In this document: positions 2,256-44,893 of the stretch, one piece after another | How the letters are laid out: every line of letters starts with the position of its first letter | Numbering within the stretch: position 1 is the first letter of the stretch | UHGV virus genome: UHGV-1361989 | From: a virus | Reading direction: 5' to 3' (one strand) | Length of the DNA stretch: 47,146 bases | Notes under the pieces: model-generated | Databases searched by the model: none | Told to the model about the DNA's origin: nothing | What the model saw: the letters and a program-made list of their open reading frames with translations, nothing else | Translations under genes and position numbers: made by a program

Positions 2256-2725
2256 TGCCAACATTGCGTGAATACCAGTCAAAAAGGCCAAACTGGAAGC
2301 TGTATGACACCATAACCTTTTATCATTCTTCATTTGGTTACGTCCGGCTAGTTGGCAATGAGTTTTCTGATATTGTACTTGGCGGCCAGACTTACCAGCC
2401 AGTGCGCATGGATGTAACCAGGAGCCAGCAATCGAACACACCGGTAATCAATGCCACGCTAAAGTTTGCGAGACTGGCTAATGACTTTAAGCAATATTTA
2501 AAGTTATGGTCAGGGTCTGGTCGTATTGAGCCTATCACCGCCCTATACCAACGCTTTGATGAGACTGACAAAGACGCACCATTAAAACCATATACGCTTT
2601 ATGTAAATGATGTGACGCTTGATCAGTCTGATGTAACTGTCTCCATCTCCATAAAAAACCCAATCAATGGCAACGTGGCAAAACTTTATGACATCACAGA
2701 ATTCCCAGGACTGCGTACCGTTTGA
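2255..2725 (+). CDS. minor tail protein (position of lambda gpL)
   Basis: Start overlaps previous stop. Synteny only. Confidence 0.4.
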
Positions 2726-2741
2726 CGATTTTGAGTGGTTG

Positions 2742-3146
2742 ATGACTGGAAAGCCATACGTTGACAGATGTTGTCATGTTGATGCAGTGGACTGCTGGGG
2801 TCTGGTAGTGCTGTTCTATCGTCTTTGCATGAATGTTAATGTCCATCATGATGATTCATATTCAAATGGCGGCGATTTTGTCACTTGTTTCAATGGAGAA
2901 ATTTCATTCTGGAAAGACACAGACCGGCCAAAAATTGGCGATGTGGTGGTTGCATATCGCGGGAGTCACCCGGTACATGTCGCGCTGTGGTGGGGTCGTG
3001 ATAAAATACTGCATGCGCGAGAGAAAACGGCAGTCAAGACAGACCGCCTTAAAACACTCGAAAAATTATCAACAAAATTAAGGTTCCTGACTTATGCCGG
3101 TTATTCACATTCAGAAGATGCCAGGTGTTCCAAAAGAGACGGGTAA
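2742..3146 (+). CDS. tail assembly protein K-like, NlpC/P60 peptidase fold
   Basis: Motifs DCWGLVV (Cys) and HVALWW (His) typical of NlpC/P60 / gpK. ORF-track start 2667 trimmed to the ATG after the upstream stop. Confidence 0.6.
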
Positions 3147-5574
3147 TGTTCCTGCTGGCACTAATCTGTGGAGATGGCTGGAGAATTCCGGTCTTCCATC
3201 TGACATCAGGATTGCACTGAATGGCCGCATTTTTGGCCCTGATGATGAATTGTCGATATCGTTAAAGCAAAACGATATTGTTAACATTTACTGTCAGCCT
3301 CGCGGCGCCATTGGCGACCTTATCAGCACGATACTCAAGCCTGTAACTAAGGTTCTTTCTTTTCTGCTGCCAAAAGCATCAACGCCATCAACCAGCACTG
3401 GCACGACGGTTGAATCACCCAATAACAGCCTGAAATCGCAAACCAATATTGCGCGAAATGGAGAGGCAAGACCTGACAACTTCGGTCAGATAAGGGCATT
3501 CCCTGACCTGATTCAGGAATCTCTTTTTGAATACATTGACGATTTGAAGTACGTCACAGAGTTCATGAATTTTGGCCTTGGGAAATACACCATTTCATCG
3601 GTTAGATATGCAGAAACAAACCTCGGGTCTTTACCCGGTGCCACTCATGTCATCTACAATCCAGGTGATGTGATAGGGCAAATCATTGAGCCTTACCAGT
3701 TCGACGGACTTGATGGTCAGGAGGTTTTAGGGCTAAACGAGTCAGAAGATACCCCGATAGAGACGGCAACCACAACATCTGTTACCAGTGGGAATTATGC
3801 TGGCGGTCAGCTATTAATGGTCATACCAAAAAACACTGATTTCGATTACTTTATGGGACTATCTTTGCCTCACTCCGTATCATTAACAATAAATATTACC
3901 TACAACTCTACATCAGGGCCAGTTACTGAAAACATTCAGCTTAGTGGCAACATCATTTCAGCTGAGGAAACTGAGACAGGCGTCATTCCTGATATTCAGT
4001 ATTTTTATAATTTCACATTCAATAACCTGACTGGCGCAAATCTTGGCAACCTGACAGGCGCAACCATCAACAACACTTATTTCCAGATTGTGGATAATGA
4101 GGCGCTTGTTGTTGGCCCATATGTTGGAGCTGTGGAATCAACGCAGGTATGGGTTCATGTTCAGTCTGAGCTTGGTCCTACCAGTGGCACGGCAGATTAC
4201 CTGATCAAGGTATGGGCGGTTGATGATAATGGGGATGCCATTCCAGGAACCGAGGAGCAGCTTGCAGACAGTATTGACAACCCATTCAATCAGACAACCA
4301 AAACCTATTATCGCACGTATAAGTTAACTCCTGCTTATGGGTTGGCTAAGTATGCCATCAGCATTGAAAGGACAAACAACTCAAACTCTGGCAACCGCGT
4401 AACGTTGCAGGCGGCGCACGCCATCAACATCCGCGAGAATGTAGTTTATCCTGATGACACCCTTGTTAAAGTCACGGTGAAGGCCACGCTTCAGCCCACA
4501 TCAGTTACTGAGCGCAAATATAATGCGCTGATCACCCGCTGGACTATCGGATATAACAGAACAACCGGGACAGTAGACTATACGTTAACACCATCAAGAA
4601 GTTTTGCAGATTCAGTGCTGCATAACTGGCTTATTACTGCTGGTCAGCCTGAAAGCACGATTGACGTGGGAAGATTATATGAAATAGCTGATGCGCTGCC
4701 TGATGAGCGTCTTGGGTACTTTGATTACACCTTTGACGATGAGGATAAGTCCATTGGTGAGCGAATCCAGACCATCTGTGATGCCGCTCGCGTAACTGTA
4801 TTTTGGGATGATGGCGTCTTGTCTTTCTCAAGAGATGAGCAAAAATCAACCCCTGAAACTGTGTTTAATACCAGAAACACGCAGGCTGATGGCTATAAAA
4901 TGTCTTATGACATGACTTTGCCAGGCTCATATGATGGCGTAAGCGTTCAGTACCGTGATCCAAACACAAACAAGCAGGCTTACGTTTATTATAAAGTTGG
5001 GGCATCTGGTATCGAACCTGGAGAGCCAACTAAGCCGAAAAAATTCGACATGCTATATGTTCGAAACCTGTATCAGGCAACAGACAGGGCTATGCTTGAA
5101 TGCAATCGCCTCATGTACTCTCGTCGTGGAATGGAGATAAAAGCGCTTGCCGATGGAGAGTGGGTGAACGTTGGCGATATGATTTCTGTTGTCGACATTT
5201 ATGATTCTGTACAGCAGACTGGCGTTATCCGATCAAGGTCTGGAAACGTATTTACCACCAGTGAACAGCTCACAGCAGGAAGCGGCCTGTTTGTGGTCAT
5301 CACTGGCGCCAATGGGAATGTGTCAGAACTCCTGGCTTGTACCGTTACTGGATTGAATACATTCGAGTGCGCATTACCATCTGATTTCGAGTTAAACATT
5401 TTTGACGGTGTTAATGTTCAGTCAGAATCAAGATATGCCATCTCCACAGAGGTTGAGCTTGATTCAACATTATGGACAGTCAGCCAGAAAACTCCAGGCA
5501 CAGATGGTACAGTCTCACTTACTGTAACTGAGTACAATGATGCCATGTACGCCTACACCAACCCTGTTGCATGA
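3094..5574 (+). CDS. distal tail / central tail fibre protein (lambda J-like), N-terminus with gpI-like beta-grasp segment
   Basis: 826 aa, Thr/Asn/Gly-rich beta-structure. Position after K-like gene. RBS aagg upstream of ATG 3094. Confidence 0.55.
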
Positions 5575-17606: not shown

Positions 17607-17635
17607 TTGACGTAGATTGAGCGCCATCGTATAGT
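17607..17635 (+). promoter_or_regulatory. rightward early promoter TTGACG-17-TATAGT (conserved box TTGACGTAGATTGA)
   Basis: -35 17607-17612, -10 17630-17635. Leader agaggtgatgaag then ATG 17667. Confidence 0.6.
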
Positions 17636-23702: not shown

Positions 23703-23762
23703 TGCCGCCTCAATGGTTTCAATCTACATCAGCAAGTAATCCACGTCAACATTTATAATAAA

Positions 23763-24079: not shown

Positions 24080-24108
24080 AATCTACGCCATGCTAGAATC
24101 TACGTCAA
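24080..24108 (-). promoter_or_regulatory. leftward promoter TTGACG-17-TAGATT (conserved box)
   Basis: Reverse complement reads TTGACGtagattctagcatggcgTAGATT, then ggag RBS and ATG of 23763..24053. Confidence 0.5.
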
Positions 24109-25218: not shown

Positions 25219-26661
25219 ATGTCAAAGTTAGAGGCGGTAAACGCCTATATTCAGCAGCGAGTGGCGAACAATAACAGACTCATAGAGCGGCAGCGCCGGG
25301 AGTTTGGCGGTAAGAACATCGACCACAAACACGATCGTCTTTGGGTCGAATGTGGCTATCCTGAAGAAATCACCGCCGAGATGTTCCGCTATGCTTACGA
25401 GCGCTATGCACCGGCAACTGCTGGCGTCAATCGCGTACTCGATAAGTGCTGGCAGACTCCGCCGCAAATCCTCGAAGAAGGCGCCGATGATAAAGCAAGC
25501 ACCCCGTGGGAGAAGGCCGCCAACAAGCTGTTTAAGCGCGCTGCGCCGTTCATTAAGGATGCAGACCGCCGCAACCTCATCAACCGCTATTCCGGTCTCA
25601 TCCTGCAAATCCGTGATGGAAAACAGTGGAATGAGCCTGTAGACACCACAAAAACAAGACGCATCAAGGATGCTGCCATTGTCCGTTACATTCCGGCATG
25701 GGAAGAGCAGCTTCGCGTTAGTGAGTGGGAAAATGATGAAGCCAGCGAGGACTATGGTCAACCGAAGATGTACGAATATCAGGAGTCGGTAGTCGGCGCC
25801 TGCAACAGCGACGGCAAACCAACGCGCTCACTGAGCATTCATCCCGATCGCATTATCGTATTTGCCGAGGGCGCGATGGATGGCTCTATTTATTCCGGCG
25901 TTCCGCTTCTGCGTGCCGGATATAACCACCTCATCGACATGGCGAAAGTCACCGGCTCAAGCGCCGAGGGCTTCCTGAAAAATGCCAGTCGGCAGCTCAA
26001 CGTTAATTATAATAAAGACAGCGTTTCCACTCAGTCTCTGGCGCAGCAAATGGGCGTGCCGCTGGAAGAGCTGGCGGACGTGCTCAATGAGGATGTGGCG
26101 CGCCTGAATGAGGCCATTGACGCAGCGATGTTCACGATGGGCGCTGATGTGAAAGTGCTCTCGGTGACGCCAGCCGACCCAGGGCCAACATGGACAATTG
26201 CGGCCAATCAGTTTGCTGCATCCATTAAGAAGCCATTCACCATCCTGTTTGGTCAGCAGACTGGCCGCCTTGCATCCGATGAGGATAAAACCGACGACGC
26301 CATGAGCGCTAAACAGCGCCGTGAGGACTGGCTGGATTACATCATCTCGGTATTCATTGACCGGATGATTTCCTTTGGAATTCTGGATAAGGCGCCAGAG
26401 AGCGGCTATTACTGCAAATGGGATGACCTGCTTGCACCTTCCGAGCTGAACAAGGCAGACCTGCTGGTTAAACTTGCCACTGCAAATAAATCTGTATTCG
26501 ATGCAGGCCAGATGGCCCTGATGACCGCCGATGAGATGCGCGGAATTGTCGGTATGGAACCTCTGGAGGAGCAGCTTCCTGACGGATTGCAGGAGGGTCA
26601 GCAGCAAGACCAGACAGACGACCAACAGCAGGACCAGACCGATGCGCCTCCTCAAAATTAA
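25219..26661 (+). CDS. portal protein
   Basis: 480 aa, follows TerL, acidic Gln/Asp-rich C-terminus. Overlapped by head-morphogenesis gene. Confidence 0.75.
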
Positions 26662-27586
26662 TGCCCGGCTTCCGCAGCCAAAATTAAGCATGAGCCTGAC
26701 AGACCCACTCGGCGCGGTGGGTCGCGTCAATAAGATGGTGCGCGATGTTGATGCCAGATATGTGACGCTAAAATCGCAGGTTGCCAGGCTGTTCCGCACG
26801 ATTCCTGTGGCGACCGGCAATGCTGAGGCTGGGAATTATTATTATGATTTCTCCGCCTACCGCGCATCGACATTCTTTGATGAGCTTCAGCGCATTCTTG
26901 ATAATCAGTTGCTGGAGGGTGACGATTTCACACATGGAAGGTTGTGGGCATCATCCTATGTCAGTGACGCCATGTATGCAGGTACGCAGAAGGCTAACTC
27001 TGACCTGAGCGACCTGTCGTCGGCATACAAAGACAGCAGGCCGCTTGCTGAAATCCTGTACTCTCAGCCGTATCTCGACAGACTTCAGCTTGCGTACACG
27101 CGCACGTATAACGATTGGGGTGGCCTTTCAGATTACACGCGGCAACAGGTGGCGGAAGTCATCACTGCTGGCATTGCAAATGGCGACGCTCCTGGAGTGG
27201 TTGAGCAAAATATCGTTAATCGCATGGACGTATCAAGGAGCTATGCGCGATCAATTGCTCAGACTGAAATCACCAACACCCTGCGTGAGGCTAACAGGCG
27301 CGAAGTGAAAGAGGCACAGGTCACGCTGGGTATGGATACCATCATGCTCTGGCAATCCGCGCTGATGAAGACCACCCGCGTCACTCATGCCGCGCGTCAC
27401 GGGAAGTATTACACGCCTGAAGAGATTGATGAGTTCTACAGCGAAGGTGCAAACCGCCGTAACTGTCACTGCGCACAGACTCCAGCGCTGGTGATGGATG
27501 GCAAGCCGGTTATACTCGAGAAGACCCAGGAAAGGCTCGATAAGCAGCGTGAGGCATGGCAGGATATACACAAGAAAGCCGCCTGA
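26642..27586 (+). CDS. head morphogenesis protein (Mu F / SPP1 gp7-like)
   Basis: Position after portal with 20-nt overlap. Start trimmed from 26531 to first ATG beyond the portal frame. Confidence 0.7.
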
Positions 27587-27610
27587 TGGCGGCTTCTGCT
27601 TATCTTTTTC
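27576..27610. terminator. bidirectional rho-independent terminator
   Basis: AAGCCGCC tgat GGCGGCTT then CTGCTTATCTTTTT. Confidence 0.55.
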
Positions 27611-27791
27611 TTATAACTGACTTTAAAATGCAATAAGGCCATGAAAGGCTTGAAAGGAACATGATGATAAAAACCAATAGCGCGCGATATAATCCATCAA
27701 TTGATTTTATTAAATCTCTTACACTCATGTAAAGACCAGGAAAATCAATCACGCAGCCAATGAAAACATACAGCAAAACAAAATAAATCAT
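27600..27791 (-). CDS. small two-helix membrane protein
   Basis: Two hydrophobic stretches in 63 aa. Last gene of leftward accessory operon. Confidence 0.45.
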   Translation of the reverse strand: MIYFVLLYVFIGCVIDFPGLYMSVRDLIKSIDGLYRALLVFIIMFLSSLSWPYCILKSVIRKR

Positions 27792-27792
27792 G

Positions 27793-28734
27793 TCAATCCT
27801 CCAACCTCAAGCCTGGGATTTTCCCGGCTGCGATGGCGTCATAAATTTCCTCTGCCATATCACTGCGGTTATCTTTTCGCTTAGCATTTGTCATTGCGCC
27901 ATAAATCTTATCGCAGATATCATCGCGCCTCCGCTCTGCTTCTGGGCGGATTGGGCGGAATGTTACATCACCAATATTGTAGGCATCCTCTATGCCGCTC
28001 TCTTCCAGCTTAATGACAACAATTTGATCACTTGCGAAAAGAATCCTGCATGATAGCCATTCATCTCCGGCCCATGAGCGCTCACACACGCATCCAACTG
28101 GCGGTACCAACCCCTCTCCATTCCACAACGGCCACGTAGCTTGACCGATGCACTCATTCAGGTCGGATTCGTCATCCGCCTCGGTGATGCCAGCATAAGC
28201 ACTCCATGCTGAAGCGCGTACCTTCTCTGCTTCATTCGTATTGTGCAGGCGGTAGGCGATGATATCCATAACTGAATTTTCATGCCGCCAAAATGCCTGC
28301 CCGGCATTAGAAAGTGGATTAACCATTACATCGCTTTCTTTATGACGTTTCGGCCACGCTTGCTGGTTTTCGCTTACCGCTCCGCAACGGTGCTTGACGT
28401 CAACAATTGTTCCGCACGGCACCGGGCATTCACCGCCGCCCCACTCAATCCAGCCTTCATTTTTGGCAGCCAGAGCGGATTCGTACTGTTCGCGGGTGAT
28501 GATGGCGGTGTCCCAATCGTCAGCAACGACGTCATATTTTTTTATTTTTGCGTCTGCGTGACCTGTTCCGTTATTTGCTAACCATATGTTTTTTTTAAGA
28601 TAAGGCGCTTTATGGTATCCAAATGCTACCCCTTTGTATATGCTGCTCCCATTATCCTGTGTAATACACTCCACCCCATCAGGCCATTGCCAGCCATTCA
28701 GGCCATCCTCAACCAGCATATCAATCAGTTTCAT
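27793..28734 (-). CDS. hypothetical protein (313 aa, Trp/Cys-rich)
   Basis: Long ORF, coupled stops/starts with neighbours. No recognisable motif. Confidence 0.55.
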   Translation of the reverse strand: MKLIDMLVEDGLNGWQWPDGVECITQDNGSSIYKGVAFGYHKAPYLKKNIWLANNGTGHADAKIKKYDVVADDWDTAIITREQYESALAAKNEGWIEWGGGECPVPCGTIVDVKHRCGAVSENQQAWPKRHKESDVMVNPLSNAGQAFWRHENSVMDIIAYRLHNTNEAEKVRASAWSAYAGITEADDESDLNECIGQATWPLWNGEGLVPPVGCVCERSWAGDEWLSCRILFASDQIVVIKLEESGIEDAYNIGDVTFRPIRPEAERRRDDICDKIYGAMTNAKRKDNRSDMAEEIYDAIAAGKIPGLRLED

Positions 28735-28735
28735 T

Positions 28736-28861
28736 TCTTCTCTCCGTTATAAATGCTTTTCAGCTCACCCATCACATTCAGCCATGCTGCATGCTCATCC
28801 ATGCCGCGCATCACCAGTTTAACGTAGCGATTGCGGGCCTTAAACATCAGTCGCGGGCACA
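28736..28861 (-). CDS. small basic ORF (about 42 aa)
   Basis: Fills the gap exactly. Stop overlaps ATG of the 313-aa gene. Confidence 0.3.
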
Positions 28862-29152
28862 TTACAAGTCACCCATGCTTGATACGCAAAGCGCAATTGT
28901 GATTGCCTTGATTTCTTTTGGTGTCTTGTTCGGCATTGAGTAGGCCATCTTTACTGTTGCACCAAGCACCTTGTTGGCATCCACTCCGTACTCGGGACTT
29001 TGTGCTACCGCCATTGCTATGCTCTGAGGCACGCCTGAATCACGAGCATCGGCCGCTGCAAACCCAACATCACCAACTTTGTTGCACACTTCACCAGCCG
29101 ATGCGCCAAATGAAGCCACTGCGAATACTGCTGCTGCGATAAATTTTTTCAT
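28862..29152 (-). CDS. secreted small protein
   Basis: Signal peptide MKKFIAAAVFAVASFGASA/GE. RBS GGGG. Confidence 0.6.
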   Translation of the reverse strand: MKKFIAAAVFAVASFGASAGEVCNKVGDVGFAAADARDSGVPQSIAMAVAQSPEYGVDANKVLGATVKMAYSMPNKTPKEIKAITIALCVSSMGDL

Positions 29153-29175: not shown

Positions 29176-29209
29176 ACTACATCATCGCCTACGATTCAAT
29201 CTACGTCAA
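29176..29209 (-). promoter_or_regulatory. leftward promoter with conserved box TTGACGTAGATTGA
   Basis: Reverse complement TTGACGtagattgaatcgtaggcgaTGATGTAGTTA. Imperfect -10. Confidence 0.45.
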
Positions 29210-29250
29210 TAGGATTATGATAAAATAATCTGCATCACCGGAGGTAACAA

Positions 29251-29688
29251 ATGAAACTATCAACGCGCGGAAAGAATTTAATTAAATCTCATGAGGGTTT
29301 GGTGCTTGCAGTCTACCCCGACCCGGCAACCGGAGGCGCTCCGTACACTGCTGGATATGGTCATACCGGGAGCGACGTTAAGCCGGGAATGAAGGTCACG
29401 CAGGCAATGGCTGACGCGTGGTTTGATAAGGACGTAGCGAAATTTGAAAGCGGCGTCTCATCACTCATCACATCCCCAACAACTCAGGGCCAGTTTGATG
29501 CAATGGTGTCGCTGGCCTATAACATCGGCCTTGGTAACTTTGGCAAATCAACGCTTCTGAAAAAGCATAACGCCCGCTGCTACACCTGTGCCGCCGACCA
29601 GTTCCGGGTATGGAATCGCGCTAATGGCAGGGTCATGAACGGACTGACCAAGCGCCGCGCAGATGAACGTCAGGTCTACATGTCATGA
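29251..29688 (+). CDS. endolysin, GH24 lysozyme
   Basis: SHEGLVLAVYPDPATGGAPYTAGYGHTG contains the E/D/T catalytic triad pattern of T4-type lysozyme. RBS ggaggt. Confidence 0.85.
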   Translation: MKLSTRGKNLIKSHEGLVLAVYPDPATGGAPYTAGYGHTGSDVKPGMKVTQAMADAWFDKDVAKFESGVSSLITSPTTQGQFDAMVSLAYNIGLGNFGKSTLLKKHNARCYTCAADQFRVWNRANGRVMNGLTKRRADERQVYMS

Positions 29689-29918
29689 GGCGCCTAACTA
29701 ACTGGCTTATCGGCATTTGGGCGTCATTCTGCTCGCTGATTCAGCTATGGCCTGACGCTATGGTTCATGTATGGGCATTCATGCCGGAAGACTTAAAGTC
29801 TTCCATTCCACCGATTGCGGTCAAGGCGATCAGCTACAGCATCCTTATTGCCTCGCTGTTTGGAAAAATGCACGGCATGAAGAAAGAGATTAAGGCGCTG
29901 AAAAATGACCAGAATTAA
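29685..29918 (+). CDS. holin-like two-TM protein
   Basis: Two hydrophobic helices, charged C-terminus, ATGA coupling to endolysin and to spanin. Confidence 0.45.
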   Translation: MRRLTNWLIGIWASFCSLIQLWPDAMVHVWAFMPEDLKSSIPPIAVKAISYSILIASLFGKMHGMKKEIKALKNDQN

Positions 29919-30285
29919 GTTAATTCTAATCGCCATAGGTGTCGCGGTAATCATTGCTGCATCTGGTTATGGCGCTGGATACCTGAAAGGATGGTATGCG
30001 CACAGCGAAAAAGTTAATCGTGACGCAGAAAAGCGCAGGCAGGCGGTGCAAAGCAAGCAGGCTAAGTCCACGACACAATCTCAGCAGGTGCGCGTTGTGA
30101 CTGAAACCAAATACAAAACCATTTACCGTGACGTGGTGAAATATGTCTCCGACCCGAATCGTAATGTGTGTGTTTTTGATGACAACTATCAGCGGTTGCG
30201 CCAACAATCCCTCGACGCCGACGCTTCCATCAGCAGAGATGCTGGGTCAGGTGTGCGAATTGTCGAAAGTGGCGCCAAAAAATAG
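29905..30285 (+). CDS. i-spanin (Rz-like)
   Basis: N-terminal TM helix, Gln/Lys-rich coiled coil. Contains embedded +1-frame lipoprotein gene. Confidence 0.7.
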   Translation: MTRIKLILIAIGVAVIIAASGYGAGYLKGWYAHSEKVNRDAEKRRQAVQSKQAKSTTQSQQVRVVTETKYKTIYRDVVKYVSDPNRNVCVFDDNYQRLRQQSLDADASISRDAGSGVRIVESGAKK

Positions 30286-30388
30286 CGACGAAAGTATCGT
30301 TATGGAGAACCAGAACACGGAGTGCGCCACAAAAAGAAAGATGACGATTTACGACTGGCAGGATTGGTATCGTGATAACTTTCAATAA
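30143..30388 (+). CDS. o-spanin (Rz1-like lipoprotein) embedded in i-spanin gene
   Basis: Signal peptide with lipobox TISGC. Begins inside 29905..30285 in another frame. Confidence 0.7.
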   Translation: MSPTRIVMCVFLMTTISGCANNPSTPTLPSAEMLGQVCELSKVAPKNSDESIVMENQNTECATKRKMTIYDWQDWYRDNFQ

Positions 30389-31582: not shown

Positions 31583-31611
31583 TGAAAATCATCTTGACGA
31601 ATCTACGTCAA
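31583..31611 (-). promoter_or_regulatory. leftward promoter with conserved box TTGACGTAGATT
   Basis: Reverse complement TTGACGTAGATTCGTCAAGATGA. -10 poor. Confidence 0.4.
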
Positions 31612-39423: not shown

Positions 39424-40235
39424 AGCTTCTCCAGAATAGCCAGAACTTCACTTAACTCAGCGGAAGGAAGGCGCAAAAATTCTTCTGTCTCCTGTGCCAC
39501 ATGACCCTCAGCAACTACCATGTGATCTGCTTCTTTCAGCAACTGAATCAGGCGGTCAATCGGCTTAACTTTTTTGGCCTTGAGCGTTTTCGCCGTCACC
39601 TTATCTTTGCCCTGCGCTTTCGCTTCCTCAACGGCAGCATCAATAACGTTAACGGCATCATCGCCATGCTCGCGCGCCACTGCAACGGCGTTGGCATAGC
39701 TGATTTGGCCTGCATTGATGCGCTGCTTGATGGCATCAGGTACGTCACCAAGTGACAGGTGCATCTGAACATCAGAAACTGAGCGACCGACCTTCTTGGC
39801 GATTTCTTCATTCGTCCACCCGAATCCTTTCAGGCGCACATAAGCCTTTGCACGCTCAAGCGGGTCAAGCTGCTTGCCCTGACTGGAAGACACCATGAAG
39901 GCGATTTTATCCGCTTCATCGCCGGTGAAGTCTTTGCACTCAATGCGCGCAATTGGTATTCCGCGCTCAATGGCACGCAGTGCGCCAAGGTAACGATGCT
40001 GGCCGTCAAGAATCTTGATACGCTTTCCGTCGGCATCAGGAATAACAGTTAACGCAGGGATTGGCTGGCCTGATTCCCAGCACTGCGCGAAGTATTCAAC
40101 GTGCTGCTCATCGGCTTCGCGGATGTTGTACCCCGGCTCAAGATAAAGCTGATCGACAGGAACCTGATAACCTTTGTTGACCACGATTCCGCCGCGAGTT
40201 TCTTTGTCTGAGTAAATTTTTCCGAGAGATGTCAT
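39420..40235 (-). CDS. ParB-like nuclease domain protein
   Basis: ILDGQHRYLGA motif of ParB/Srx N-domain. Start placed at ATG 40235 behind SD tgaggaaaag. In-frame alternative 40271. Confidence 0.7.
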   Translation of the reverse strand: MTSLGKIYSDKETRGGIVVNKGYQVPVDQLYLEPGYNIREADEQHVEYFAQCWESGQPIPALTVIPDADGKRIKILDGQHRYLGALRAIERGIPIARIECKDFTGDEADKIAFMVSSSQGKQLDPLERAKAYVRLKGFGWTNEEIAKKVGRSVSDVQMHLSLGDVPDAIKQRINAGQISYANAVAVAREHGDDAVNVIDAAVEEAKAQGKDKVTAKTLKAKKVKPIDRLIQLLKEADHMVVAEGHVAQETEEFLRLPSAELSEVLAILEKL

Positions 40236-40242
40236 CTTTTCC

Positions 40243-40359
40243 TCACTTTGATAAACAGATTGCGCTGGCAATGGCGAATCCGATAACGATTAATGCCAGC
40301 TTGATTTTGAAATTGCGCCATGCTTTCAGGTCTTCTTTGCGGATTTCGTGGCGGATCAT
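40243..40359 (-). CDS. small TM protein (38 aa)
   Basis: RBS ggag. Hydrophobic LALIVIGFAIASAICL. Not in ORF track. Confidence 0.3.
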   Translation of the reverse strand: MIRHEIRKEDLKAWRNFKIKLALIVIGFAIASAICLSK

Positions 40360-40607
40360 TTTGATTCTCCGAGTGCTTTGGCGATTGCTGCTTTAGCTTT
40401 CGAGGTGTTAACGTAGACACATGCGCGAGCCTCCAAATCCAGCAGCGCTTCCAGCAATTCAGGCGCTGCGGCAATGAGCTGTGCATCATGGATGTTCTGA
40501 ATATCTTCTATCGTGTCGTATGGGCCCTCTGCTGGGATATCAACATCTATTGATGTAAGTCTATTGCGAAGTCTCCACGGCCCCGGCGTACCTTTGAACT
40601 CATTCAT
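40356..40607 (-). CDS. hypothetical early protein
   Basis: Leader agaggtgatgaagATG near-identical to rightward early gene 17667. In-frame upstream ATGs to 40625. Confidence 0.45.
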   Translation of the reverse strand: MNEFKGTPGPWRLRNRLTSIDVDIPAEGPYDTIEDIQNIHDAQLIAAAPELLEALLDLEARACVYVNTSKAKAAIAKALGESK

Positions 40608-40647
40608 CTTCATCACCTCTAACATTTATTGTTGTTTCTACGTCATC

Positions 40648-40676
40648 ACTATAACGACACCCTCAATCTACGTCAA
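40648..40676 (-). promoter_or_regulatory. leftward promoter TTGACG-17-TATAGT (conserved box TTGACGTAGATTGA)
   Basis: Reverse complement TTGACGtagattgagggtgtcgtTATAGT. Near-copy of promoter at 17607. Confidence 0.6.
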
Positions 40677-40837
40677 CACTTTATGATAAAATTAAACCAA
40701 CAACACTCACCCCGCGCTGTTCCGTCCTGAAAAACGTAAGGCGGCGAAATTGGATATAGCAATCGGCGTTATCGTCATAGCGTTTTCGCTGGTTCAGGTG
40801 TACAGATGCTGGAAGTTCATCATTCGGAGAATAATTA

Positions 40838-43969: not shown

Positions 43970-44230
43970 CTATTCCTCACTAATCGCAGCATCAAGCTGG
44001 CGTCGCAACATGCACAGCGCACCGCGTGGCATTGCCTGGCGACTCACGCCGTCGAAAATCTTCCGGTTGAGGTGATTGGTCACTCGCGGCCTGATAGCCT
44101 GCCAGCACGCCTTAATGCTGCCATTTACCGGGCGGCGCTCGAGCATGGCGAACTTTGCAGATAGTTCCAGCGTCACCAGTGCATCAAGGTATTGCTCGCA
44201 GGCATAGCGATTTTCGTTATCCATCATCAT
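43970..44230 (-). CDS. hypothetical protein
   Basis: 86-aa ORF coupled to HNH gene. Confidence 0.4.
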   Translation of the reverse strand: MMMDNENRYACEQYLDALVTLELSAKFAMLERRPVNGSIKACWQAIRPRVTNHLNRKIFDGVSRQAMPRGALCMLRRQLDAAISEE

Positions 44231-44712
44231 TTACCATGGTTCTCATGAAAATCATACTTAACCTCCGCCTTTCTCCTTGCTTCAGCGGCCATATTTAAGT
44301 CAGAAAACAATCCAAGATGAATCTTTACGCCATCAACTTTTATGTTTGAGGCCCATTTTTTATGTTGTTTATCCCATGAAACACCAGTAACACCTGATTT
44401 GTTTGTCACCCTGAACTTCATGTTGTGATTATTCTCTTTTGGAGTGACAAGCCTGAGGTTATCTATCTTATTGTTTGTTTTATTGTGGTCTATATGATCA
44501 ATCTGCATTCCGTCAGGAATTTTCCCATTATGCATTTCCCAGATGATGCGATGAACAAGATACTTGACGCCATAGATTCCAACAATCTTATATCCATTGC
44601 CTCCTACCGCCTTCACCTCGCTTCCGATTTTCACTCTGTTTGAGGTTCTTATCTTCCAGTAAATAGCCCCATCACAATAATAAAAAATATCTGACCAATC
44701 AGTTATTTTCAT
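44227..44712 (-). CDS. HNH homing endonuclease with AP2 domain
   Basis: IDHIDHNKTNNKIDNLRL + SGVTGVSWDKQHKKWASNI + NHGK. Confidence 0.8.
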   Translation of the reverse strand: MKITDWSDIFYYCDGAIYWKIRTSNRVKIGSEVKAVGGNGYKIVGIYGVKYLVHRIIWEMHNGKIPDGMQIDHIDHNKTNNKIDNLRLVTPKENNHNMKFRVTNKSGVTGVSWDKQHKKWASNIKVDGVKIHLGLFSDLNMAAEARRKAEVKYDFHENHGK

Positions 44713-44824
44713 CGAATGTCACCCCTACCATTGCAAGTAATTTTTTCGCCATCAACTCGGCCTCATCATAGGTAAACCCGCAATCAACGTACAGGTCGAT
44801 GTAAAATCTCAAATCAGCATCAGT
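44710..44824 (-). CDS. small ORF (about 38 aa)
   Basis: Stop overlaps HNH ATG. RBS gaggg. Not in ORF track. Confidence 0.3.
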
Positions 44825-44893
44825 CTCGTTCATATGTCAAACCCTCAATCACCTTATGCTTTCAATCTACGTCAGTTTTGCTCCCCCTGTCAA

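Follow-up and report, generated by a model that had tools for sequence, protein, structure and literature searches.

A fixed leftward operon slot between the head and lysis genes of Roufvirus-like phages, with a candidate periplasmic exclusion protein and a modular accessory protein

The virus genome UHGV-1361989 was analysed over its whole length of 47,146 nucleotides (nt), which is called the window here. It is the siphovirus genome (~47 kb) of a Klebsiella phage of the Roufvirus-like group, to which Aeromonas phage pIS4-A, Vibrio phage pYD38-A and many Klebsiella phages belong. Four open reading frames on the minus strand, encoding 96, 43, 313 and 63 amino acids (aa) and termed g96, g43, g313 and g63, are located between the Mu F-like (MuF) head-morphogenesis gene and the GH24 endolysin gene. 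The slot, its promoter and two of the genes are fixed features of the lineage, and half of the cargo is accessory. As a whole, the operon is tentatively read as a self-contained accessory unit in a fixed expression slot, with an exclusion-type protein in g96 and a host-binding protein in g313; we put the probability of this complete reading at roughly one in three. The genes of the operon are:

28862-29152, minus strand: g96, predicted exported 96-aa protein; signal peptide aa 1-19, mature 77-aa four-helix part with conserved Cys23 and Cys89
28731-28862, minus strand: g43, 43-aa basic core protein, translationally coupled at both ends
27793-28734, minus strand: g313, acidic, Trp-rich, predicted cytoplasmic 313-aa protein; three small beta-barrel modules and a helical tail
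27600-27791, minus strand: g63, 63-aa protein with two hydrophobic helices; swap position at the operon end

A sequence-only reading of this DNA had described four tightly coupled leftward genes, and these were recovered at the same coordinates on the minus strand with overlapping or nearly abutting junctions. One base is shared between g96 and g43 (TAATG), g43 and g313 overlap by four bases (ATGA) and a gap of one base separates g313 from g63, which argues for translational coupling throughout. Purine-rich ribosome-binding sites precede g96, g313 and g63. The products also agree with their earlier description. The 96-aa protein begins with MKK followed by a hydrophobic core and ASA|G, a Sec signal peptide as judged by inspection. 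The basic frame of about 42 aa is g43, with 43 aa and an isoelectric point (pI) of 9.9. The Trp/Cys-rich protein without a recognisable domain is g313 (13 Trp, 9 Cys, pI 4.8), for which no known family was found in Pfam, NCBIfam, PADLOC or the Protein Data Bank (PDB) sequences. The 63-aa two-helix membrane protein is g63, in which two hydrophobic stretches were recognised by eye ahead of a basic C-terminus. None of the four proteins had a PADLOC match at an expectation value (E) of up to 1, and their PHROG matches were confined to families of unknown function.

The slot was compared in seven GenBank phages and in 39 IMG/VR loci retrieved with a g96 profile, one of which (L050) ends within g96, so that 38 could be used for gene order. 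The promoter-terminator frame was found at the same position in all 46 of these Roufvirus-like relatives and in three Skatevirus-like phages (Skate, C1 and Sf11), and the gene order was the same in the seven GenBank relatives and in 38 of the 39 IMG/VR loci. For the related phage KlebP_265, two endolysin-adjacent genes have been counted among the conserved genes of the proposed Roufvirinae (PMC11769527). The control elements of the slot are:

29196-29209, minus strand: promoter -35 region; TTGACG at 29204-29209, within the 14-mer TTGACGTAGATTGA
29181-29186, minus strand: candidate -10 hexamer GATGAT, 17 nt past the -35 box
29218-29226, plus strand: extended -10-like element TGATAAAAT, directed rightward to the lysis cassette and placed back to back with the -35 box of the leftward promoter
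27575-27596, both strands: shared hairpin terminator; the loop holds the head-morphogenesis stop codon
TTGACGTAGATTGA copies in the window: 17607-17620 on the plus strand; 23719-23732, 24095-24108, 29196-29209, 31598-31611, 40663-40676 and 44862-44875 on the minus strand

The TTGACG-box promoter proposed at 29209 was found again by a consensus scan. The sigma-70-like element TTGACG-17 nt-GATGAT begins at 29209 on the minus strand and scored 9/12; a single match of this score is at chance level for the stretch scanned. The site is nevertheless credible as a promoter, since TTGACG is kept in 46/46 related loci and GATGAT, at equal spacing, in 45/46, although the 12 nt immediately upstream of the -35 box occur in nine versions. 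At the other end, the idea of a shared bidirectional terminator was borne out by the hairpin at 27575-27596, which folds on both strands with -16.6 kcal/mol on the plus strand (z -3.8) and -19.9 kcal/mol on the minus strand (z -4.8). It is conserved in the relatives; KlebP_265 has a different G+C-rich stem with a U-run at the same place.

The 14-mer TTGACGTAGATTGA belongs to a motif family. When two mismatches are allowed, seven copies are present in the window where 0.38 would be expected (at most two in 100 shuffled sequences), and phage 6991 has eight copies at positions matching those of the window. Every copy heads a small unit outside the main structural gene strings, including a ParB-like operon and the further leftward cassettes that break up the late genes. 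A perfect copy is located at the same MuF-lysis slot in Skate, C1 and Sf11. Judging from this shared motif, the operon probably belongs to the same temporal class as the ParB-like operon and the other small leftward cassettes, early or middle. The 14-mer may be the promoter consensus of such a class, or a promoter combined with an operator for a phage regulator.

Two copies of a back-to-back module of about 31 nt, ATTTTATCATAA-N5-TTGACGTAGATTGA, were observed at 29196-29229 and 40663-40696, and its opposite strand reads TGATAAAAT, the rightward extended -10-like element. The first copy faces the lysis cassette and the second the plus-strand genes from about 40750. Behind the promoter copy at 40676 lies a gene for an 89-aa protein (40356-40625, minus strand; MNEFKGTPGPW...LIAAAPELLEAL...) that resembles, by eye only, the proteins of about 100 aa in the MuF-lysis slots of Skate, Seszw_1 and C1, so that cargo may move between the leftward cassettes of the phage. 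In four related loci (L007, L023, L030 and L032) the endolysin gene is displaced by ~650-750 nt and the upstream sequence is replaced right up to the -35 box. An annotated HNH homing-endonuclease gene lies upstream of TTGACG in L007 (3771-4247), where it splits the two divergent promoters, and in Sf11 an HNH gene is present within the slot, upstream of the g313-type gene (L052 2029-2514).

Inside this frame, core and variable cargo can be distinguished. The core consists of g96 and g43, present in 46/46 loci. Two allele types of g96 occur, with 82-99% and ~51-57% identity to the protein of the window, and g43 is intact in 37/38 loci with 76-100% amino-acid identity among the relatives. Pairwise differences in g43 amount to 416, 471 and 1754 at the first, second and third codon positions, and this concentration at third positions indicates a real gene under purifying selection; no family match was obtained in Pfam, PHROGs or NCBIfam. 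The flanking MuF gene shows 88-98% identity in most loci and ~70% in four. Identity in g313 is only 32-67% among the relatives; the gene is absent from 7/38 loci and split or truncated in three (L013, L031, which is KpV2811, and L037). Where it is absent, a g43 variant is followed almost immediately by the terminator.

The position of g63 holds g63 itself, one of at least six unrelated small genes, or nothing. The alternatives include two single-helix proteins (63-64 aa), a 42-43-aa two-helix peptide, a 40-aa zinc-ribbon peptide in ten relatives and a 99-aa soluble protein. With 31% G+C, g63 differs from the genome (47%), and it had no family match in Pfam, PHROGs, NCBIfam or PADLOC. As an Imm homologue it was rejected (no Pfam match at E up to 0.1; BLASTP against T4 Imm gave E 0.21 over 13 residues), and likewise as a class II holin or pinholin, being located outside a lysis cassette that has its own holin and lacking a holin family match. 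The zinc-ribbon peptide was considered as a Lar-type restriction-alleviation protein and set aside because its zinc-ribbon match was sub-threshold only.

In the slots of Skate, C1 and Sf11 the first genes are different and the last gene is of the g313 type; that of Seszw_1 lacks TTGACGTAGATTGA and has a 64-aa gene after its g313-type gene. The combination of g313-type genes with other first genes suggests that the particular cargo is of more recent origin than the frame and the g313-type gene. Six of the loci without g313 (L034, L038, L040-L042 and L049, at ~3915-3975) contain a 20-aa remnant, MNKIEWLESMRTLHNKKSNI, and L044 has from ~3915 a longer stretch that by eye is like the 71-aa Seszw_65 of the Seszw_1 slot. 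Both point to repeated replacement of the cargo instead of simple deletion.

The block had been proposed as a moron-type cassette, a view that holds in part. Like the morons of lambdoid phages in the sense of Juhala and Hendrix, it is equipped with a promoter-like site and a terminator of its own, lies between conserved genes, is opposed to the late genes, shows presence and absence of g313 and g63, and contains in g63 a gene of deviant G+C content. It differs in that no relative examined lacks the frame or the two core genes, that the promoter comes from a genome-wide motif family and was not brought in with the cargo, and that the Roufvirus-like group is described in the literature as lytic. 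Moron-like behaviour is thus limited to g313 and g63 and does not extend to a sporadic insertion of the whole block. With frame, g96 and g43 at one position in 46/46, the block approaches the pattern that had been named as refuting a moron, conservation in all relatives at a fixed place in a head operon, but it is not part of a head operon. The other pattern so named, strong homology of g313 to a virion structural protein, was not observed.

The core protein g96 is highly uniform. Its length is 96 aa in 78 of 82 protein clusters (outliers of 95, 85 and 57 aa), Cys89 is invariant and Cys23 nearly so, and the motif AA.ARD.GV is shared by the family. The structure model is a four-helix one of high confidence (predicted local distance difference test, pLDDT, 91). 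The model and the signal peptide suggest an exported, disulfide-bonded four-helix periplasmic protein. A weak match to g96 within the window at 39576-39851 (E 0.15) was judged to be chance; it is part of a long reading frame whose counterpart in phage 6991 is annotated as ParB-like, and no paralogue of any operon gene was detected in the window.

A true homologue of g96 was found in Skate-like phages (hhalign probability 98%, E 3e-13, both Cys kept), of which Skate, Sf11, Sa179lw, Seszw_1 and LPST10 were sampled. In these phages it opens a different leftward mini-operon within the tail module, far from the lysis genes. In Skate it is directly followed by an Imm-family gene (PF14373 Imm_superinfect, E 1.3e-18), and the same holds for Sf11 and Sa179lw. 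The window has a leftward cassette in its own tail module, with a homologue of Skate gp58 at 44702-44833 (minus strand, 62% identity) and then a 161-aa reading frame at 44227-44712 (minus strand), where phage 6991 has an HNH endonuclease. In Skate, gp58 comes after the g96-like and Imm genes. The g96-type gene thus sits in different cassettes in the two subfamilies.

The partner of Imm in superinfection exclusion is T4 Spackle (gp61.3), which is made as a 97-aa precursor with a 75-aa mature periplasmic helical bundle, contains one disulfide, is expressed early and acts with Imm (PMC7677548). The precursor of g96 has 96 aa and the mature part 77 aa. In both, cleavage of the signal peptide leaves Gly at the N-terminus and one disulfide links the first helix to a C-terminal one, as predicted in the case of g96. 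Small proteins of the saposin fold (four or five helices, with disulfides between the first and the last), including the Vibrio vulnificus PAS factor (PDB 2B8I), were also considered for comparison with g96. The position of the Skate-like homologue directly upstream of a T4 Imm-family gene suggests that g96 is an analogue of Spackle in architecture and neighbourhood, but not in sequence and probably not in fold. Of the roles proposed for the cassette, superinfection exclusion thus gains indirect support, for g96 only and by way of the Imm gene next to it in sister phages. Between T4 Spackle (MKKFIFATIFALAS, L060 5759-6052) and g96 (MKKFIAAAVFAVAS, 29096-29152) the signal peptides are 61% identical over 18 residues, a striking likeness that probably reflects convergence of Sec signals.

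The genes on both sides of the operon are:

26642-27586, plus strand: left flank, Mu F-like head-morphogenesis gene (Pfam PF04233, phrog_758)
29251-29688, plus strand: right flank, GH24 endolysin, which opens the lysis cassette (Pfam PF00959, annotation of relatives)
29685-29918, plus strand: holin, lysis cassette
29905-30285 and 30143-30388, plus strand: overlapping spanins, lysis cassette

The longest head-morphogenesis reading frame, from 26531 on, has 131 nt in common with the portal gene; annotated homologues match the ATG at 26642 (20-nt overlap), which is the likelier start. The spanins are of the overlapping two-gene type, in which the 126-aa gene carries a second frame of 81 aa with a lipobox-like ISGC. 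This type is found in ~11/39 related loci and a different spanin in the others. Endolysin and holin each occur in several alleles that mix freely among the loci.

The proximity to these genes raises the question of whether the operon is an arm of the lysis system, with g96 as a periplasmic regulator (endolysin inhibitor, holin or spanin partner, or sensor for lysis inhibition) and g63 as a holin- or antiholin-like protein. The operon and the endolysin-holin-spanin cassette diverge from a common control region of ~98 nt, g63 is small with two hydrophobic helices and a basic C-terminus, and T4 spackle mutants also alter lysis timing (PMC7677548). However, across 39 loci both g96 allele types are found in free combination with every allele type of endolysin, holin and spanin, and the Skate-like homologue is located in the tail module, distant from the lysis genes, so that regulation of the phage's own lysis by g96 is less likely. 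In addition, the lysis cassette already has a holin, and the position of g63 is taken elsewhere by the zinc-ribbon peptide, the 99-aa soluble protein or nothing. A role in lysis is accordingly considered unlikely.

The variable protein g313 belongs to a large and modular family. It was subdivided as follows:

28459-28734, minus strand: module A, aa 1-92 (phrog_26870, partial matches, model and conservation profile)
28237-28458, minus strand: module B, aa 93-166 (phrog_9174), WIEWGGGECPV...DIIAYRL beta domain
27949-28137, minus strand: module C, aa 200-262 (phrog_7798), WNGEGL.PPVGC.CE...FRPIR five-strand barrel
27796-27948, minus strand: helical tail, aa 263-313, with the conserved terminus IYDAIAAGKIPG.KLED

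Homologues of g313 comprise 2584 proteins with 1387 representatives at 50% identity, many of which match only residues 1-92, 78-166 or 201-313. The PHROG matches, all of unknown function, likewise each cover a separate part of the protein. Module B is gained, lost or duplicated in homologues (0 to 2 copies), some of which carry extra inserts. Conserved joints (residues 1-10, 71-100, 161-170, 191-220, 261-270 and 301-313) alternate with variable cores, the pattern expected from recombinational exchange at the joints. A diversity-generating retroelement as source of the variation was set aside on account of this pattern of whole-module exchange, although no scan for a reverse transcriptase was made. 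Module A comprises an N-terminal helix, a beta domain and the conserved linker helix ITREQYE.ALAAK, and W95, W98 and W149 of module B are invariant. The modules are not recognisably related to one another (hhalign probability below 0.1%) despite similar W-x-W/G-G starts. A Pfam scan of 90 family members yielded only three isolated matches at chance level.

The AlphaFold model of g313 shows three small beta domains and a helical tail, with module C modelled best (pLDDT 87-90). The best Foldseek matches in the PDB were weak ones to Tudor, PWWP, Spt5 KOW and integrase SH3-like barrels, with no E below 0.001 (3e-3 or worse) and template modelling scores (TM-scores) below 0.2 on the query. Among viral proteins, the related ones in BFVD are uncharacterised throughout, save one labelled 'SaV-like'. 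In Serratia phage Eta and Enterobacter phage Arya, distant homologues have primase, recombination or partition genes as neighbours; the homologue of Pseudomonas phage O4 is surrounded by biosynthetic and unannotated genes. These neighbourhoods and the absence from some relatives speak against a virion role and fit a cytoplasmic protein that binds a variable partner. As its family evolves by module swapping at conserved joints, g313 clearly qualifies as a candidate host-interaction protein subject to diversifying pressure, and from its variability an anti-defence role, as had been proposed for the cassette, may be suggested. Nothing in the evidence points to the third proposed role, modification of the host surface.

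Alternatively, g313 could be a reader of nucleic acids or modified bases, or a regulator, acting through aromatic pockets in Tudor/PWWP/KOW/SH3-like barrels. The nature of the best fold matches and the three invariant Trp of module B would agree with this, and the three modelled barrels resemble tandem proteins such as the SETDB1 triple Tudor, Spt5 KOW and the C-terminal domain of retroviral integrase. The low TM-scores, the E values all above 0.001, the unrelated modules and the missing Pfam family set g313 apart from these proteins. Moreover, both g313 and its family are acidic (median pI 4.7), and neither a basic surface nor a known DNA-binding motif was found in it. This function is therefore regarded as quite improbable.

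A comparably doubtful explanation is that g313 and g63 are selfish or neutral cargo of little benefit to the phage in a well-expressed slot. The losses of g313 in 7/38 relatives, its disruption in three more, the HNH homing-endonuclease genes inserting in the same region and the deviant G+C content of g63 would be in line with it. On the other hand, full-length g313 homologues are abundant in the family, invariant residues and conserved joints are retained and translational coupling is maintained.

Least probable of all is a role of g313 in virion decoration or assembly as a dispensable protein of the T4 Hoc kind: decoration proteins are small beta domains, acidic, variable and non-essential, as is g313 with its chain of small beta domains next to the Mu F-like gene, but g313 is encoded on the opposite strand under a promoter motif common to the ParB-like operon and the small leftward cassettes, its distant homologues lie near replication, recombination and partition genes (Eta, Arya) or other non-structural genes (O4), the head-decoration gene of the relatives is annotated elsewhere, and g313 matched no structural family in Pfam, PHROGs, NCBIfam or the PDB sequences.

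The favoured explanation is an accessory operon in a fixed expression slot. The slot would consist of a sigma-70-like, host-type promoter, back to back with the lysis-cassette promoter, and the shared hairpin terminator; it would be transcribed by the host polymerase, probably early, and its cargo would be swapped inside the frame by recombination. In the core layer, g96 would be exported, and from the periplasm its disulfide-bonded four-helix domain of 77 aa would act on the envelope and most likely stop further phages from completing entry, as T4 Spackle does with Imm, and g43 would be a small basic cytoplasmic protein. In the variable layer, g313 would be a cytoplasmic, acidic, Trp-rich chain of three unrelated barrel modules with linkers as recombination joints, most likely binding a variable host target, for instance one of defence or takeover, and g63 would be one of several interchangeable small, mostly membrane, proteins at the operon end. 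Confidence is low for the early timing, the periplasmic location, superinfection exclusion by g96 and host binding by g313.

Several observations weigh against this explanation. The -10 hexamer GATGAT matches the consensus weakly (4/6). No homology between the mature part of g96 and T4 Spackle was detected: hhalign aligned only residues 1-18, that is, the signal peptides, and the g96 profile found no Spackle chain among PDB sequences at E up to 10. The Imm gene is missing beside the g96 homologue in two of the five Skate-like phages (Seszw_1 and LPST10), and an Imm homologue was searched for in the window and not found. As g96 is kept throughout two subfamilies, it may have a role in the phage's own cycle instead of exclusion. 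The model of g313 is of moderate confidence (pLDDT 70; predicted template modelling score, pTM, 0.33), no defence or anti-defence family was matched, and its variability and dispensability are compatible with many roles. Finally, the relatives without g313 are represented by contigs of uncultured phages, and a single metagenome (3300045988) supplied six of the seven.

A bolder version of the favoured explanation, which we hold to be rather doubtful, is that g96 founds a new periplasmic superinfection-exclusion family of Klebsiella, Salmonella and E. coli siphoviruses, structurally analogous but not homologous to T4 Spackle. It would hit an entry step of incoming phages, such as one involving a tail-tip cell-wall hydrolase like the gpK-like NlpC/P60 protein; g313 would be a polymorphic decoy or inhibitor with shuffling modules, directed at variable immunity proteins of the host, and the slot a dedicated arms-race locus with a promoter of its own. 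The window encodes a minor tail protein with an NlpC/P60 domain (2667-3146, plus strand; E 5e-9), like lambda gpK, and a scan of tail proteins yielded no other tail-associated hydrolase-like domain. A periplasmic exclusion factor could conceivably have this protein as its target.

Phages of this group are under development against multidrug-resistant Klebsiella and Salmonella. The four operon genes have so far been annotated as 'hypothetical' only, and the literature on Roufvirus- and Skatevirus-like phages treats their products as hypothetical proteins only. If g96 does block superinfection, this would affect the behaviour of such phages in cocktails, and g96 would be a second, unrelated solution to the problem that T4 handles with Spackle. 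The fixed frame with exchangeable cargo is a convenient natural site to find genes of this sort, and it could serve as a payload insertion site in these phages. A phage accessory locus is in itself of a known kind; the main interest is in the Spackle-like lead on g96 and in the large modular g313 family, which stands outside every domain database.

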